From a virus (lineage: Duplodnaviria; Caudoviricetes), in IMG/VR virus record IMGVR_UViG_3300037418_002116: a stretch of 64,000 bases of DNA, one strand, 5' to 3'. Position 1 is the stretch's first letter. Each line of letters starts with the position of its first letter. Positions 11,504 to 64,000 of the stretch are shown piece by piece. The notes below the pieces were generated by a model. It did no database searches. It saw only the letters and a list, made by a program, of their open reading frames with translations, and was not told the origin of the DNA. Position numbers and translations under genes: made by a program.

Positions 11504-12643
11504 TCAAATCATGTGTTTAGCTTTGAAGGTTTCCCATTTCAGCTTTTGTGTAGAGTTTTTCTCGATACGCTTCAAGATTGCCGTTCTAGCAGGCTGTTCA
11601 GCGAATTGAGCGAATAGAATCGGAACATCGTCCGGCTCAAATTCCTTCGCAAATTCTAGTGCAAACTTCTTACGATCACCCGAAGATTTTTGGTACACAT
11701 CGTTATAGATTGCATGATATTTCGATTCTTGGCGATTTACAGACGCCCAGAATTCTTGTTCAAATTCAATTACCCTATTAAGGTCTTCTTCTATCAGTAA
11801 TGATTTCAAGTCATCGATCTTTTCTTGAAGGATGGCTTGAACAATGTTGTATTCAGCGGAATTAACAAGTTCTTTCGAATTATGCATTAGGCAATATTCG
11901 GAAGTTTTGAATTTCAGCATGTGCCCGTTGTCGAAACGAAGCACATAACCTTCAATACCTTGTTGGTCCTGAACACTCGCAATAAATTGGGCGAGTTCCT
12001 TTTGACTATTATATGTTGCTACAGTGGGAATATCCCAATGACCGGCTAACTCTTTCATCTCTTCCGGATGAAAATATTCACCAGTATCATTATATCTTAT
12101 AGCAGTTAATATCAAATTGTCAATAGGATAATCTATAACTATCCTATTTTTACGGGAAGTCCACTCAAATATTGGTGTAATTTCTTCCTCATCACAGTAT
12201 TCTGCAAACTTGTTGTACTTCTTATTGGCATATGCAAAATACTCTGCATTATTTCCAACATCCGTGATACCCATCTTTGTTCCCCAACGGAAGCCGTTGT
12301 GCAGACGGAGTGGCGTGATCATGGAACCGTCAAGCTTTTCGAACACCGTGTGGGGTTGCGATAGGTCGATAAGGTTCGCTTGCGTCTCTGGACGTTCGTT
12401 GATGTTGAAAAATTTATGGAAACGACGGGACAATAATTTTCCGTCCGGAGCAAAGACAATGCCTCGGCACTCACGACGGAGAGCATCATTCAGAGTCGTG
12501 ACGGGCGGAAACGAATCCGGCATGTGGACCACATAGTTGATAACAATGTAATCCTCTTTGTCACAAACAATGAATTCGTCCCGGCCTTTGATAGCCGGGA
12601 GAACATCATCAATCGTGCTTATTTTTGGAAATTCGTAAAACAT
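11504..12643 (-). CDS. rnlA: RNA ligase 1 (T4 RnlA/gp63 family)
   Basis: ECRG, RRFHKFFN, EKLDGS (motif I), EGYVLRF (IV), LKFK (V). Confidence 0.92.
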   Translation of the reverse strand: MFYEFPKISTIDDVLPAIKGRDEFIVCDKEDYIVINYVVHMPDSFPPVTTLNDALRRECRGIVFAPDGKLLSRRFHKFFNINERPETQANLIDLSQPHTVFEKLDGSMITPLRLHNGFRWGTKMGITDVGNNAEYFAYANKKYNKFAEYCDEEEITPIFEWTSRKNRIVIDYPIDNLILTAIRYNDTGEYFHPEEMKELAGHWDIPTVATYNSQKELAQFIASVQDQQGIEGYVLRFDNGHMLKFKTSEYCLMHNSKELVNSAEYNIVQAILQEKIDDLKSLLIEEDLNRVIEFEQEFWASVNRQESKYHAIYNDVYQKSSGDRKKFALEFAKEFEPDDVPILFAQFAEQPARTAILKRIEKNSTQKLKWETFKAKHMI

Positions 12644-31564: not shown

Positions 31565-31866
31565 TCCTTGTCTGGCGGCTCTTTATTGCCCCATATGATG
31601 TAGTTAGGATAACTACCAACCATATATCTTACTATAATGTTTTTAAGAACTGGATCGATGTTTCCTAGAGAATCTTCCAATTTTTTGCGAGACTCGAGAT
31701 AGCTTTGTTCTTTAGCTTCGCAATTTTTGAAACAATCATCACAAATGACGACTGGATCATCCAAGCCATCCCCGAATTTTATGAGGGATTCAGCCATCGC
31801 TTCTTCGTCAGACCGTTCTTTTTCAAAAGTCCCGAGACACTGTGCACAGGTGAATGTATTGCTCAT
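31561..31866 (-). CDS. Small zinc-binding protein
   Basis: CAQC...ICDDC. Confidence 0.55.
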   Translation of the reverse strand: MSNTFTCAQCLGTFEKERSDEEAMAESLIKFGDGLDDPVVICDDCFKNCEAKEQSYLESRKKLEDSLGNIDPVLKNIIVRYMVGSYPNYIIWGNKEPPDKD

Positions 31867-32888
31867 GAGCCAGTCATTTCGTTGGTTTCGTCGGCTGTTC
31901 CGTGGAACCAATGCTTAGCTGTCTGAACATGGTCTTTCCGGACATACTTCCCGACATGATTACGAAAATCTCGCCATGTGAAATTCCCTCTGTTTCGAAG
32001 AACAAATCCCTCGGAACTTCCGTAGTCGGAATTGGCTGCGATTTTTCGGATGATTTTTTCGTCATAGATTCCTTCATACAGGACGGGAACCGACTGAATT
32101 CCCAAAAGCTGAAACCATTCCATCGTGTCGTCCCAAGACAGGCATTCCAGACCATTCCAGATGGAAAAGCCAAGGAAGAAGGATGGCAGATTTTTGTAGG
32201 CTATCGAGTGCTTGGCGAACAGATTCTCACCGCAAATGCGCCAGTCTTCCGGCAGATCATACGCAAAATTCTGTGCGAAATTTTTTGCCCAATCCCGTGA
32301 CCAGTGATTGCGGCCATCGATGGAGCGGGCGTGAAGATAGCCATCCGAATAGATCGTGGTGTTTTCGCCATCCATCTTTTCCGTCACAACCACTTGATTT
32401 CCCTCGAAAATTTGCATCGAAGAAATCATGCGGTCGTCATCGTTCATGCCGGGCGAGAATGGCAGATGGTAGGTTCTCGGATATTTCATGCGATTGGTGA
32501 AAAGATCGAGAACGCCGCCTTCCTTCAAAATTTTCTGAACGGATTCGTCGTTAAATAATTCACCACGGACTCTTTGCCCGTTTTCCAGAACGATGTTGCC
32601 CCATTTGTCATAGATCACGTCGGAATAGAAATGTTCCGGCAGAACCGGCTTGGTGATTCCGGCACAGACTCGAATCGCCTCTACAGAGATAAGAGTCTTC
32701 TCACAATCCTTGTGATGTTCAGTGCAAACGGAAGCACCATTATCAAGATAATAACCACCATCAGCGAAAAGCCTTCGCTCCAATATATGGTGAGCATCTT
32801 TAGCAGGATTGCCACACACAACACATTTATGATGATCCCGAGCAAAAACGCCTTCACGAAAATCATCCCTTGATAAGAGCTTGGACAT
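31863..32888 (-). CDS. HNH domain fused to Rnl2-like RNA ligase
   Basis: N-terminal CVVC..DAHHI..CTEHH; C-terminal KYPRTYHLP, TEKMDGEN, EGFVLR, KYVR. Confidence 0.88.
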   Translation of the reverse strand: MSKLLSRDDFREGVFARDHHKCVVCGNPAKDAHHILERRLFADGGYYLDNGASVCTEHHKDCEKTLISVEAIRVCAGITKPVLPEHFYSDVIYDKWGNIVLENGQRVRGELFNDESVQKILKEGGVLDLFTNRMKYPRTYHLPFSPGMNDDDRMISSMQIFEGNQVVVTEKMDGENTTIYSDGYLHARSIDGRNHWSRDWAKNFAQNFAYDLPEDWRICGENLFAKHSIAYKNLPSFFLGFSIWNGLECLSWDDTMEWFQLLGIQSVPVLYEGIYDEKIIRKIAANSDYGSSEGFVLRNRGNFTWRDFRNHVGKYVRKDHVQTAKHWFHGTADETNEMTGS

Positions 32889-38705: not shown

Positions 38706-38891
38706 TTACCGCTTCTTCTGCCTGAATTCTTCGGCTTCTTCACGGGTATCGAAAACGGCAATAACTTGCCACTTCAAATCCGTTTCCTTGCCTTCGGTTA
38801 CTGTTGTCAGATTCCACACATTAAAGCGGCCATCGTGACGGGGTGCAACATCGGACGGTAGATTGTCCGTAAACCAATTATTTGTTGTCAT
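38706..38891 (-). CDS. Hypothetical protein
   Basis: ATGA overlap. Confidence 0.65.
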   Translation of the reverse strand: MTTNNWFTDNLPSDVAPRHDGRFNVWNLTTVTEGKETDLKWQVIAVFDTREEAEEFRQKKR

Positions 38892-40078
38892 TGATATTCT
38901 GTAGTCTCGCCTTTACGGTTTAGATAATCATCGGATACGTATTTCAAAATGATACGACCTAATTCGTCATCATAGCATTCTTCTGCGGGAATTGCAACCA
39001 CTCCCTCACGAATATTCGAAAGAAACATGGATTTTCCATCAACATATTGAGCGATATCAGCTTCATTGTTCACGATATCCAAAAGAGGAACAGTTGGAAT
39101 TCCAATAGCATTCAAAAGATCATATTTTTCAATGGCATCGATGTAACGATCACCGATTTTGATATCAAAGCCACGGAATTCTGGCTTCTCCAATCCATAA
39201 TGCAAATCCTGAATACCCTTGCCGAAAATTTCGCCAAGAATGAATATTTTTTGGTCGCTTGCATTCAATTCCCAAACCAATCGGGTTAGTTTGGTGAAAA
39301 GAGAATTTGCTATAACTGTTTGAACGTAAATGTTGTTTTTATTTGCCAAATTGTTTTTGAAAACCAGTCCCTTGCTACCAAGGCCCTTTGAGAACACAAC
39401 AAATGAACCTTTGACAGCATTGAACAATTCATCATGCTGATATTGCGGAAGCCAGCCGATGCCACAAAATGTGCCGTGCAGCTTTTCCGTGAGATAAATT
39501 TTCTTGCCCGTTAGGTCCAGCTTGCCGGGATGTTTTTTGGCATTCTCGATATCGTACTGAACCGTGTTGTGGTTACCGATGTACAGAAGATCGCCAGACA
39601 TGGAAGCTGGCAACTCGGGTTCATATTTCGTTATTCCGAGAATTTCGGAAACATCACGGCCTAATGGTGACGGAGCGTCAACAGCGTCCAAATACAGAAC
39701 AACTTTCCCATCGCTGGTTTCAATCCAGCCTTCATCGACATGCAAACTGTTCGCTTGTTTGACGGGGAACAAGATGCCTTCCGACGTGATGCCACGCAAC
39801 TTGATTGGCTTTACCCGGTTTCCGAGCTTGCCGGACAAGTAGCCAATGCCCTTCTCTTCATTCCAAAATCCCATTCGCAACAGGTTTTCAGGGACAACAG
39901 AATCAGCCTGAACATAGACAACCCAATCGAATGGTTTGTAACGATGTGAGCCGTCATCAAGCTTTGCCGAAACAATCTTGTAGTCGTAGCCTTTGAGTTT
40001 GATGATACTTAGACGGTCTGCATTTGGATGGTCTGTTACGGCTTCAACAGCCATAATCTTAGTTTCAAATTTACTCAT
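38888..40078 (-). CDS. RNA ligase, DRB0094/Rnl5 type with N-terminal OB domain
   Basis: HPNADRL, LRGITSEG, TEKLHGT, GEIFGKGIQ, REGVV, LKYVSDDYL. Confidence 0.92.
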   Translation of the reverse strand: MSKFETKIMAVEAVTDHPNADRLSIIKLKGYDYKIVSAKLDDGSHRYKPFDWVVYVQADSVVPENLLRMGFWNEEKGIGYLSGKLGNRVKPIKLRGITSEGILFPVKQANSLHVDEGWIETSDGKVVLYLDAVDAPSPLGRDVSEILGITKYEPELPASMSGDLLYIGNHNTVQYDIENAKKHPGKLDLTGKKIYLTEKLHGTFCGIGWLPQYQHDELFNAVKGSFVVFSKGLGSKGLVFKNNLANKNNIYVQTVIANSLFTKLTRLVWELNASDQKIFILGEIFGKGIQDLHYGLEKPEFRGFDIKIGDRYIDAIEKYDLLNAIGIPTVPLLDIVNNEADIAQYVDGKSMFLSNIREGVVAIPAEECYDDELGRIILKYVSDDYLNRKGETTEYQ

Positions 40079-49103: not shown

Positions 49104-50216
49104 TTACAAGTTTATGATGCTATCCAGCCATGCCGAACGGCGACGTTTCAGTTCCTTGCCTAAATCCGGGCCGGGAACATAACCTTCCGCCATCAGATGT
49201 TCGGCAGTGATTGGCCACACAAACGCCGAATCACGCTCAAAGAAGGCATTCAGATTTTGCCAGTTCTTTGCCTGTTTCCAACGAACAAGGTCCGTAACAC
49301 AAAGCTTATGATAGTCGCTTTTCTGACATTCTGAAATGATTTGGAAATTTGTTGTTCTGTCATGGTTCAGCATGAAATAGATTCTGACAAAATCCAGTTC
49401 CGCCGATGCAGCATGAAACCGGTTCTTCATGATATCGAGAACCCGTTCATCGTGATTGTACAGAGCAATGAGTTTCAGAAGCCACAGATATTCATGATTG
49501 AAATCTTTGACTTGCGGATAAAAGCCGGGATCGATATCCAGAACCGGGCCAATGGTGTTGACCATCAGCCGCACAATCGTGAAGGCTTTGTCTTGGCTTA
49601 GAATTTTTTGCAGTTCAGCCCATATGCGTTCGCCCGAAATATTTTTCAGACCGAAGGCGAGCTTCCGGATGATTTCCAGATTTTCGGTCGTGGTATCGTC
49701 CCAAACGACCGTCTTCATGCGCCCGAGGAAGCGGAAATACCGCATGATTCGAAGATAATCTTCCTCGATACGGGCCTGTGCATCACCGACAAAGCGGACG
49801 ACGCAATTCTTTAGGTCCGACTCGCCGCCAAAATAGTCATAGATTTTTCCGTCCTTATCCATGAACATGGCATTGAACGTGAAATCCCGCCGTGCAGCGT
49901 CAAGCTTCCAATCTTCAACGAATTCGACTTCCGCATGACGACCGTCCGTTGCCTTGTCGATCCGGAGCGTTGTAACCTCAAAGGCATCCTTGCCTATTAC
50001 AACGGTCACAGTGCCATGCTGTAGGCCCGTGGGCACTACGGTGTATCCAAGTGCCTCGAAAGCCATGATCACGTCCACGGGCTTCCCCGTGGTCGCTATA
50101 TCGATATCTTTTGGGTCTTTGCCTAGCAGATAATCACGGACAGCGCCGCCAGCGATTCGGGCTTCAAAACCCGCATTTTCAAGGATTGTTATCGCTTGGT
50201 GGGCTTGTTGGAGCAT
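49104..50216 (-). CDS. cca: CCA-adding tRNA nucleotidyltransferase (class II)
   Basis: GGAVRD...KDIDIAT, GLQHGTVTV, EVTTLR, DAARRDFTFNAM, EDYLRIMR, SGERIWAEL. Confidence 0.9.
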   Translation of the reverse strand: MLQQAHQAITILENAGFEARIAGGAVRDYLLGKDPKDIDIATTGKPVDVIMAFEALGYTVVPTGLQHGTVTVVIGKDAFEVTTLRIDKATDGRHAEVEFVEDWKLDAARRDFTFNAMFMDKDGKIYDYFGGESDLKNCVVRFVGDAQARIEEDYLRIMRYFRFLGRMKTVVWDDTTTENLEIIRKLAFGLKNISGERIWAELQKILSQDKAFTIVRLMVNTIGPVLDIDPGFYPQVKDFNHEYLWLLKLIALYNHDERVLDIMKNRFHAASAELDFVRIYFMLNHDRTTNFQIISECQKSDYHKLCVTDLVRWKQAKNWQNLNAFFERDSAFVWPITAEHLMAEGYVPGPDLGKELKRRRSAWLDSIINL

Positions 50217-60993: not shown

Positions 60994-61022
60994 TATATAG
61001 AGTATATGTTCTAGAATGTCAA
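60994..61022 (-). promoter_or_regulatory. Promoter of ncRNA copy 2
   Basis: CTTGAC-N17-CTATAT. Confidence 0.85.
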
Positions 61023-61042
61023 GGGAATTATGTGGCACAAAA

Positions 61043-61119
61043 TGGTGAGTCCTCCGGGGCTCGAACCCGGAACCCCCAACTTAAAAGGCTGGTGCTCTAA
61101 CCAATTGAGCTAAGGACTC
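61043..61119 (-). tRNA. tRNA-Lys(TTT)
   Basis: CCAGC-CTTTTAA-GTTGG; canonical; ACCA. Confidence 0.93.
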
Positions 61120-61291
61120 GGAACCATTTGTTATGAAGGCACCATCCAAGTTTGATCAATTCTTTTCCCTGATCCGACTCGGCGGGCAACTCCATACTCG
61201 ATACATTAGACCAGATTGTATCAATTTGCAAGTGATATTTGGCATCTGGTTTGATATTTTCGAGAATTTCAAAAGATTTTTCGTATTTCAT
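61097..61291 (-). CDS. Hypothetical protein (3' end overlaps tRNA-Lys)
   Basis: GGAGA RBS; EL.KLGW motif. Confidence 0.55.
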   Translation of the reverse strand: MKYEKSFEILENIKPDAKYHLQIDTIWSNVSSMELPAESDQGKELIKLGWCLHNKWFRVLSSIG

Positions 61292-61343
61292 GTCTCAATC
61301 TCCGTTCCATGTACGGATTATTAAGCATGAGATTCGTTAATTT

Positions 61344-61787
61344 TTAGTTAAATTTTCCTCGGAACCATAGGCGAAGATAAAGAGCCTGTGCGCCCATCAA
61401 AAGGGCAACCCAGAAAAAGCTATTCATCCAAAATGCCATGTCGGGAAAACCGTTCCTCGTCATGACGAAGCTCATAAACCAGAACATGACAAGATCGAAG
61501 CCGTTGTAGAGGAACGACCACCAGCCACCAGATTTTTTCTCGATTTCCTCTAGCTCTTGACCGGCAGGCGGTTGAGCGCCAGTAAATGCCACTGCCAAGA
61601 TCGCAAAGAGAACGAGTAGAAACACACAAAAATAAGCCAAAAGGCAGAAATACAATGGTAAAAATGCCAGTTCGCCAATCGATGAATAGGTATAGATCGA
61701 AAAATATAGTGCAATGAATGCAATAATTCGGGAATAAACAAATGTATAGTTCAATTTGTCATTCTTCATTTTAACAGTAATTTTCAT
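61344..61787 (-). CDS. Integral membrane protein
   Basis: Four hydrophobic segments; AAGGA RBS. Confidence 0.7.
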   Translation of the reverse strand: MKITVKMKNDKLNYTFVYSRIIAFIALYFSIYTYSSIGELAFLPLYFCLLAYFCVFLLVLFAILAVAFTGAQPPAGQELEEIEKKSGGWWSFLYNGFDLVMFWFMSFVMTRNGFPDMAFWMNSFFWVALLMGAQALYLRLWFRGKFN

Positions 61788-61835
61788 TATATTCCTTAAA
61801 AAAGAGGGGGAGAAATTTCTTTCTCCCCGGCATTA

Positions 61836-62522
61836 TCAGCTAATGTCTTTCAATTCTGCCGACGTGAAGCTTGCTTCCGCCACATTATGAGAGGACATAT
61901 AGCGTCTGGCCGATGAAGCCATTGCAGTAGCCGTTTCAGCCCATTTCAAAGTCGGGTTGTAGTGGCCTAGTTTTGTCGTGTCGGCAACGATCTTGCTACC
62001 GCCCTTGAAGGCTTCCAAGTTAGCGCCAAGGTACATGACCGGCCAATTTTTCTTTTCGAACTTGGCCAGCAATTTTTTGGTATCTTGAAGCGTGTACTTG
62101 GTCGAGGTATTTTCGTCGCCATCCGTGATGACCACGAACTGAACCAAATCCGTCTTCTTCAAGCCCTGTGCCTTTGGCAGAGCGCCAAATTCGCAGATCG
62201 CATCATACAGAGGAGTCATGCCACGTGGCTTGATCGTTTCATCGGCATCAGACAAGGGTGTCCACTTTGCCGCCTTGGTGTATCGATGCTGTAGAATTGG
62301 AGCGTTTTCGAACGGGATTGTCTGGAAAGTTAACGACGTAGTGTATCCATTATTCCCAATCCAAGAGCCGTTGCCGATCTTGTCGAAGAAAGCCAAATTG
62401 ACGGAAAGATCAACGTCGGCTAGGGAATTCATATATTCGTTGAGAGTTGCGATAGTTTTTGTCCAGATGTTGGCCATCGAACCGGTTCTATCAACCAAGA
62501 TAAACAAATGTAATTTAGGCAA
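61836..62522 (-). CDS. von Willebrand factor A (MIDAS) domain protein
   Basis: ILVDRTGSM, PRGMTPLYDAI, VVITDGDENTS, YLGAN. Confidence 0.9.
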   Translation of the reverse strand: MPKLHLFILVDRTGSMANIWTKTIATLNEYMNSLADVDLSVNLAFFDKIGNGSWIGNNGYTTSLTFQTIPFENAPILQHRYTKAAKWTPLSDADETIKPRGMTPLYDAICEFGALPKAQGLKKTDLVQFVVITDGDENTSTKYTLQDTKKLLAKFEKKNWPVMYLGANLEAFKGGSKIVADTTKLGHYNPTLKWAETATAMASSARRYMSSHNVAEASFTSAELKDIS

Positions 62523-62590
62523 TAGTATAGAGCATCCTAAGTTAGGGTTAAAACCTCCATAACAAAAAAATCACTCTACTATATATGCAG

Positions 62591-62624
62591 AAAATAAAAG
62601 GGAGCGCCTAGATTCAGCGCTCCC
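62591..62624 (-). terminator. Terminator of the large ncRNA
   Basis: GGGAGCGC-tgaatctag-GCGCTCCC-TTTTATTTT on minus strand. Confidence 0.85.
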
Positions 62625-63588
62625 GTGACGGTCTTTCCAGTCATTATCCTAAGCCTTGCTACAGGCTAGGTTCTACTGTTATCCACTTCCTTTTGGGAAG
62701 TAACCGTTAAGACTTCTTGTAACGACGCATGAGAATTACTCGGCAATTTCCATCTGGTATAGGATAGCTAGTCCCACATCAAATTTCCCTTACCAAACTA
62801 GACCGCCTTGCGGGCTAAATCCAGCACCAGATTCCCTTTCGAGTCTGGTATTAAGTCCCTTCTTCTCACACCGGAACGGTACTTTTGCTTTTGTGATCGA
62901 GATTTGCACTCGGTCACCCCTACCAATGGGATGATTTGCTGAACCAACTAGGTCATGCCGTTCCAGTTGCTTCCTAAATGTTTCCATCTAAGAAATACAA
63001 CACGACCATCGCTACTTTCACCCTTGCGTGGCTACTCGTCATATTTCAGGATATCGTGCCTTGCGGCCCGGTGCCCTTAATATTGGATACAGCCTTCAAC
63101 CCGCTACGGTCTTGACCATATTCCTATACGTTGACACTCATTCTTCTGTTGATTTGCAAGACTGAATGAGTTTGCGGCTCATTTAGCTGGCATGGTTATC
63201 CAGCTTATCACCCTTCCGGGGTGTCAATCATCAACCGTCTGAACTAGCTCCCACGGGCGAACCGCAGAGCATCCCTCGGCAAGGGATAGTCCGTACTTGC
63301 TTGGCTTCACCATCTTTCGATGGCGGGAAGGCATATTGGAAGCCTTCCTTTGTAACCGGTTACCCGGCACAATGCCCCAAGCGGCAAACTGTTTTGCCAT
63401 TTCTGGCGAATTCTTTAGGGACCGGTGTCTTAACCGTTTGACGGGTTTGTTAGACGACAGAACCGTTCGAAACAGGACGAACCTTATTTCTCCAAAGTTC
63501 TGGATGGTCATTTAAGCCTAGTCAATCTTCTTACAGGTTCCCAAGCCTGTACCAGTTTTTGACACTCATTACCGGTTATCCTTTTCGG
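62596..63588 (-). ncRNA. Large (~990 nt) structured ncRNA, GOLLD-like
   Basis: No credible ORF; more than 12 hairpins with GAAA/GCAA loops on the minus strand; follows a tRNA-like gene; ends at a terminator; GAGTAGC..GTGTTGTATTTC..GCAACTG blocks recall GOLLD (from memory, unverified). Confidence 0.75.
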
Positions 63589-63589
63589 T

Positions 63590-63662
63590 TGGCTGAGAGG
63601 GAGGATTCGATACCCCATTGTCCAGCGACAAAGCCGGAAGTCCTACCTTAGACGACCTCTCA
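63590..63662 (-). tRNA. Non-canonical tRNA-Gln(TTG)-like leader of the large ncRNA
   Basis: TGAGAGG/CCTCTCA+GCCA; TCCGG-CTTTGTCG-CTGGA; T-arm GGGG-TATCGAAT-CCTC. Confidence 0.68.
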
Positions 63663-63728
63663 TTAGACCGAACATTTCACAAAACTCAATCTCGTTAAGT
63701 TGTGTCAGATGTTCGTTTCAGTTTTTTT

Positions 63729-63757
63729 ACTCTACTCTATTTCCTTTTTCGTGTCAA
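63729..63757 (-). promoter_or_regulatory. Promoter for the tRNA-like/large-ncRNA transcript
   Basis: TTGACA-N17-TAGAGT. Confidence 0.7.
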
Positions 63758-64000
63758 CAACTATTTTCATTTTTCTTCGAATTTTTTAGGAAACAGCCAA
63801 AAGGAATTTCGAACTTCCTACCCTTGTTTCCCGTCTACACCTTCCCACTTTGCAGCGGTACTCTTGATGCAAACTTTTCAGAACAAACCGTTGTTATCTA
63901 TCATTTGGCTAGGAAAGGTTGTCAAGCCTTTCTTTAGGGATCATAGATTGTGGTTGACTGCCACCGGTTTGTTGTTCTTTATATAGGCGACTAAGAAATG

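Follow-up and report, generated by a model that had tools for sequence, protein, structure and literature searches.

The window, the entire 64-kb stretch of DNA that was analyzed, comes from a soil or rhizosphere phage, and it carries on its minus strand an RNA unit whose features at 62591-63757 were all confirmed in the sequence. The minus strand of the window bears all 14 of the tRNA genes that ARAGORN called. Scattered among them are genes for RNA repair, encoding a T4 Rnl1-type RNA ligase, two more RNA_ligase-family proteins, and a CCA-adding enzyme with a PolyA_pol head. The three ligases and the CCA-adding enzyme, assigned by domain matches, lie at 11504-12643, 31863-32888, 38888-40078, and 49104-50216, likewise all on the minus strand, and with the tRNA genes they bear out the proposed location of the unit in a phage tRNA island. 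The gene downstream of the unit (61836-62522) has distant homologs in phages, where they bear the annotation von Willebrand factor type A. The phage proteins matched those of cultured Synechococcus, Caulobacter, Roseobacter, and Sinorhizobium phages at 33-43%. These matches are distant and mixed, and the origin in an alphaproteobacterial phage that was suggested in the first-pass annotation was not established; an alphaproteobacterial host is possible.

A sigma-70-like promoter, recognized by its pattern (TTGACA-17-TAGAGT, 10 of 12 positions matching), was found at 63757-63729 on the minus strand, in agreement with the TTGACA-N17-TAGAGT promoter first annotated, and a precursor transcript probably starts there. 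It is not covered by any RNA contig from the four metatranscriptome runs described below. Sites of the form TTGACA-17-TA..(A/G)T occur eight times within 18774-63757, all on the minus strand, versus about one expected by chance, and the promoter-like sites at 36119-36091, 47254-47226, and 52631-52603 are directly upstream of tRNA genes. The promoter scan revealed no second minus-strand promoter-like site between 63729 and the body of the RNA. A search for a Bacteroidota-type boxA (GTTCTTTGAAA) in the leader yielded one site with two mismatches, at 63685-63675, and no enrichment of the motif in the window. At the far end of the unit, a hairpin with the loop UGAAUCUAG and a U tract occupy 62624-62590 on the minus strand. 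The terminator scan gave the hairpin, at 62624-62600, nine pairs of which seven are G-C, where an 8-bp terminator had been annotated. In the alignment to the Rfam model for GOLLD, this hairpin corresponds to the final stem, and on pattern plus homology it is predicted to double as the intrinsic terminator.

Between the promoter and the body of the RNA, at 63662-63590 on the minus strand, is a tRNA-Gln-like element with an encoded CCA end. In a region-only search, RF00005 matched 63662-63593 with 32.4 bits (E 1.8e-4, cut-off 29), and the MFE fold of the element is a cloverleaf. The element has a U1-A72 pair and G73, a UUG within an anticodon loop of 6 or 8 nt rather than 7, and a T arm whose stem has 4 bp and whose loop, UAUCGAAU, has 8 nt. 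The RF00005 score and the cloverleaf speak for the tRNA-Gln likeness noted in the first-pass annotation, where the gene was called aberrant; ARAGORN did not call it, and neither its anticodon loop nor its T loop has 7 nt. The element is real but non-canonical. A twin of it lies at 35955-35887 on the minus strand; it shares the 4-bp T stem and the UAUCGAAU loop, and its UUG lies in an anticodon loop of 6 nt. Beyond these two, no tRNA-like element with the UAUCGAAU loop was found in the window or in 1.3 Mb of fetched phage loci.

The identity of the gene-free kilobase was established with covariance models. In a permissive scan of 62300-64000, the GOLLD model RF02032 matched the minus strand at 63008-62604 over model positions 1-416 of 416, with 137.5 bits and an E of 7.7e-38, while the ROOL and OLE models gave no match in the same region even at E 10. 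The first-pass annotation had recommended these three models and had noted a resemblance of the 3' half to GOLLD on the minus strand; the resemblance extends from one end of the model to the other. The hairpins that it had named, the GNRA-capped ones included, could each be read on that strand. The match falls 12.5 bits short of the Rfam gathering score of 150, which is an operational threshold and not a structural feature. A scan of the whole window at gathering thresholds reported only the 14 tRNAs and missed both the GOLLD and the tRNA-like element. The Rfam model corresponds to the conserved 3' region of the solved GOLLD env-38, residues 421-833, which includes a disordered linker at 497-538 (PMC12286853). 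The matching ~405 nt of the window, 63008-62604, are here called the 3' domain. The consensus hairpins at model positions 251-267 and 307-323 are absent from it, and a hairpin of ~25 nt is inserted in one of its loops. We conclude that a genuine GOLLD RNA, and not a new RNA class, accounts for the gene-free kilobase.

Comparison of the unit by blastn with 50,697 phage records gave no match. The downstream gene at 61836-62522 had a sole relative in the viral contigs, with 57% identity, on L001, from a complete viral genome of 242 kb that has terminal repeats. L001 also carries a syntenic GOLLD, which scored 168.5 bits with RF02032, above the cut-off, although it is without the same two consensus hairpins. 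Further members of this subgroup were sought by pattern scans on shared features of the 3' domain. The members L122/L150 scored 181.9 bits and L140/L152, below the cut-off, 143.4 bits; L129/L130 were also found. A scan of a genome collection returned only one more subgroup member, L153, in a Gammaproteobacteria MAG, and no clear host signal. The scans also revealed a marine GOLLD group and about 120 lake-type GOLLD candidates. Two narrow patterns run against the viral contigs returned nothing or the L001 contig only, and in one scan with a 3'-domain pattern 11 of the 13 matches were not GOLLD.

Directly upstream of the 3' domain, at 63390-63009 on the minus strand, is a structured and variable 5' domain of ~380 nt, which was matched within its own subgroup only. 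Folding of 63592-63009 was compared with that of shuffled sequences, giving a z of -3.27 for the minus strand, with none of 100 shuffles as good, and -2.13 for the plus strand. When the 5' region of the window was searched singly with nhmmer against 120 GOLLD candidates, no match was obtained, L001 included, so that the homology became apparent only with a profile of the relatives. A profile HMM built from the 5' domains of four relatives, aligned without the window, matched the window at 63404-63017 with an E of 7.3e-12, its sole significant match in the 64 kb; within the 1.3-Mb set of all fetched loci, the E of the same match was 1.5e-10. The profile did not reach the marine or lake GOLLD groups. 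Elements follow the same order in the subgroup: first a GUAA-capped hairpin, then one with a UCC.AU.U-type loop, next a GNRA and a CGCAA-type hairpin, and finally, just 5' of the 3' domain, a GAGUAG...CGCAAG...GAAA block.

Base pairing in the 5' domain was assessed by RNAalifold on a six-sequence alignment, which gave 63 consensus pairs with 87% of cells occupied by standard pairs, as compared to 34-46% when the partners were slid by one to three columns and a maximum of 73% in 500 shuffles. Compensatory changes were found in 44 of the 63 pairs, against 9-22 in the slid controls and at most 32 in the shuffles. The pairs were counted on the alignment from which RNAalifold had obtained the structure, so that the counts lean in its favor; the profile match is the independent test. 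Two long-range helices covary in the relatives and are intact in the window, one between 63382-63377 and 63304-63299 (six of six standard pairs) and one between 63296-63289 and 63135-63126 (eight of eight).

The pattern of conservation also bears on whether the region could encode a protein. The longest minus-strand ORF in the ~990 nt between the tRNA-like element and the terminator is ATG-initiated, at 63511-63224, and would specify 95 amino acids. It has no match in Pfam, in keeping with the earlier statement that the stretch is without a credible ORF, and it crosses the boundary between the leader and the 5' domain so as to overlap the conserved RNA. Conservation among the relatives tracks base pairing, not reading frame, and we assign next to no probability to a protein-coding region here.

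Since the conserved 5' domain starts near 63390, the GOLLD body extends from there to 62600 and amounts to ~790 nt. This is a normal size for the family and not an enlarged one; of the GOLLD RNAs with solved structures, env-38 has 833 nt (PMC12286853) and that of S. agalactiae 700 nt (PMC12990946). The 5' domain, at ~380 nt, falls within the ~300-420 nt expected for this part of a GOLLD and compares with 420 nt in env-38 (PMC12286853). In the first-pass annotation the 5' part was regarded as expanded, and the RNA as either a variant of unusual length or a member of a new giant class, with the mapping of extra domains suggested as a check. That mapping assigned the 5' domain to homologs in five related GOLLDs and left over only the leader of ~200 nt between the tRNA-like element and the body (63589-63391, minus strand), which lies outside the conserved RNA and is neither conserved nor notably structured.

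In the five relatives, nothing could be aligned with the leader, and a search of all fetched loci by blastn and tblastx found nothing similar to it. In L001 the place of both the tRNA-like element and the leader is taken by an ORF of 176 amino acids of the T5orf172 type, related to GIY-YIG (L001:2547-3077, plus strand), whose end is separated from the start of the L001 GOLLD by no more than ~20 nt. The ORF may represent an inserted mobile element. The leader was considered as a remnant of this gene, for which tblastx found nothing, and as a structured domain, for which folding gave a z of -1.14, no better than shuffled sequence. The leader also contains, on the minus strand at 63570-63559, the 12-nt word AATGAGTGTCAA, which is repeated exactly and in direct orientation in the 5' domain (63142-63131), where it overlaps one strand of a conserved long-range helix. 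There are two exact copies in the window, and with one mismatch allowed there are three matches versus 0.48 expected. The leader copy was examined as a competitor of the consensus helices by partition-function folding and rejected, the pair probabilities not being lowered in the precursor.

Sequence archives provided evidence on the transcript itself. The whole unit is present in six soil or rhizosphere DNA runs, and at least 15 rhizosphere metatranscriptome runs contain 27-52% of its sampled words. Contigs from four of the RNA runs were placed on 61000-64000 of the window and cover 62626-63371, the longest piece having 537 nt, with Illumina adapter immediately after 63348, 63367, or 63371. 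In these four runs no RNA contig fell on 61100-62600, which holds the downstream genes, or on 63626-64000, and the empty flanks argue against carried-over DNA. By the location of the contigs, the GOLLD body is made as a discrete, stable RNA. The contigs are assembled sequences that give neither strand nor true ends nor reliable levels, with one depth figure per contig, and they derive from closely related strains and not from this exact genome, differing from it at 7-10 positions over ~340 nt of the 3' part. They end at 63371, short of the strand at 63382-63377 that the conserved helix requires, and the mature 5' end can therefore be placed only at about 63371-63390. A second contig of lower depth, present in all four metatranscriptomes, matches the window only at 63103-63150 and 63273-63309, with 134 unrelated letters in place of the intervening 122; the replaced stretch indicates a related GOLLD with a swapped sub-domain in the same communities.

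RNA from the leader was recovered separately, as short contigs of low depth on 63423-63579 in two runs, with a gap at 63372-63422 between them and the body, and a search with 63400-63760 alone retrieved only the two RNA runs holding these contigs. The fragment measures 140-157 nt within 63423-63579, carries adapter at both ends in run X13, and could be left over from processing or could be an independent small RNA. It begins at ~63579, about 11 nt past the 3' end of the tRNA-like element, a position that fits a precursor cut by tRNA processing. The earlier suggestion that transcription begins upstream and the product is cleaved behind this element is plausible.

These contigs are among the observations that would be expected if the mature RNA were about 1 kb in length and the 200 nt an extra structured 5' domain, making the unit an expanded GOLLD or a new giant class. 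The lack of another minus-strand promoter-like site downstream of 63729 points the same way, as do hairpins in the leader, one of them GAAA-capped, and its 12-nt copy of an internal segment. We nonetheless consider an RNA of this length very unlikely. Besides the gap that separates them from the body, the leader contigs are short and adapter-ended and were met in two RNA runs versus at least 15 for the unit, and the leader folds no better than shuffles, is unconserved in the relatives, is without a counterpart among the fetched loci, and is replaced by a protein gene in L001. The L129 sequence (99% identical to that of L130) has a promoter-like TTGACA...TATAGT ~20 nt ahead of the conserved 5' start. 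A body of ~790 nt preceded by a leader outside the conserved RNA is the preferred reading of the unit.

The 3' domain contains a variable linker at 62945-62880 on the minus strand, at the place behind its first hairpin where GOLLD RNAs often carry a tRNA, and the linker aligns with the linker tRNAs of the relatives across a 25-nt gap. Parts resembling a D arm and a T arm are kept and the anticodon arm is missing, the gap being seen against L001, L122, and L129. No tRNA match was obtained for the linker at E 10, and its fold is not notable (z -0.51); from the alignment it looks like a decayed tRNA remnant. All four relatives scanned for tRNAs have an intact one in the linker: Gln-UUG in L001, one with an 8-nt anticodon loop, Cys-GCA, and Lys-UUU. 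The tRNA with the 8-nt anticodon loop (CUUUAGGA), at L150:1837-1908 on the minus strand, was reported by ARAGORN as 'tRNA-???' with the anticodon uuag, and it could be a UAA-reading or quadruplet-reading tRNA inside a GOLLD. Embedded linker tRNAs are a known feature of GOLLD (PMC12286853, PMC12990946). The presence of tRNAs of four identities, or of a remnant, in the linker of one subgroup fits the view of an exchangeable tRNA slot.

A remnant in the linker where four relatives have intact tRNAs, the score of 137.5 bits against a cut-off of 150, and the two absent consensus hairpins could together signify a decaying relic that is losing its function. The same hairpins are absent from the L001 GOLLD, which scores above the cut-off, and the solved S. 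agalactiae GOLLD forms a cage despite lacking several of the consensus helices (PMC12990946). The window has mostly standard pairs in the conserved helices, with both long-range helices of the 5' domain complete, and RNA of the unit, not of the neighboring genes, was assembled in at least 15 metatranscriptomes. A relic is on these grounds highly improbable.

We favor, with a probability of roughly 0.85, a normal GOLLD gene transcribed as a precursor behind a tRNA-like element, trimmed to ~780 nt, and by homology forming an RNA-only cage. Transcription would probably begin at the sigma-70-like promoter at 63757-63729, recognized by its pattern, pass through the tRNA-Gln-like element and the unconserved leader of ~200 nt, and end at the last GOLLD hairpin acting as intrinsic terminator, as pattern and homology suggest. 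Of these steps, passage through the element and leader is partly shown, and promoter use and co-transcription with the element are inferred. The leader would then be removed by tRNA-type processing and 5' trimming to leave a stable RNA of ~770-790 nt, from about 63390 to 62600 as the RNA contigs suggest, with a 5' domain of 380 nt and a 3' domain of 405 nt. By homology with the solved GOLLD structures, the env-38 14-mer (PDB 9MEE; PMC12286853) and the Streptococcus agalactiae 12-mer (PDB 9L0R; PMC12990946), copies of this RNA would most likely come together as a closed cage built of RNA alone, with 10-14 subunits and inward-pointing linkers. Loss of individual helices alters the stoichiometry of the oligomer in solved GOLLDs (PMC12990946), and the copy number of the window GOLLD is unpredictable.

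A bolder proposal would make the leader functional, with the tRNA-Gln-like element, which may stand in for the linker tRNA of the relatives, directing processing and so timing the release, folding, and assembly of the GOLLD; the cage would be very stable and the dominant rhizosphere RNA of the phage, possibly persisting outside cells or in virions. We regard this combination as very unlikely. The preferred reading, a normal GOLLD gene, leaves unchanged the picture of what GOLLD is thought to be. It adds to the family a clade from large soil and rhizosphere phages, part of which is missed in routine annotation because its members score below the Rfam cut-off, and it adds environmental RNA evidence, in that the GOLLD body, and not the leader or the neighboring genes, was assembled from at least 15 metatranscriptomes.

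Among known systems, ROOL and OLE are, like the unit in the window, large, ornate RNAs free of ORFs, and ROOL is in addition phage-borne, found near tRNA islands, and cage-forming; the unit differs from both in matching neither Rfam model at E 10. Closer are the GOLLD RNAs with a tRNA in the linker, such as that of Mycolicibacterium, with tRNA-Phe in J13/15 (Morgado et al. 2020, PMC7549688, as cited in PMC12990946). The four scanned relatives hold a tRNA at this place and the window linker aligns to those tRNAs, but the window keeps only pieces of the arms and has a tRNA-Gln-like element upstream of the whole RNA instead. Even the closest relative, L001, differs from the window in carrying its tRNA-Gln(UUG) inside the linker. 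With respect to GOLLD itself (RF02032), first described by Weinberg et al. 2009 as cited in PMC12286853, the window RNA departs in its sub-threshold score, the two missing hairpins and the inserted one of the 3' domain, and a linker tRNA that looks decayed, and its 5' domain is recognizable by sequence only in the window, L001, L122, L129/L130, L152, and L153. It agrees with GOLLD in matching the conserved 3' domain at full length, in having a more variable 5' domain set apart from it, a variable linker at the site of the relatives' tRNAs, a terminal hairpin with a conserved AAUCU loop core, a length of ~790 nt, and a place in a phage tRNA island.
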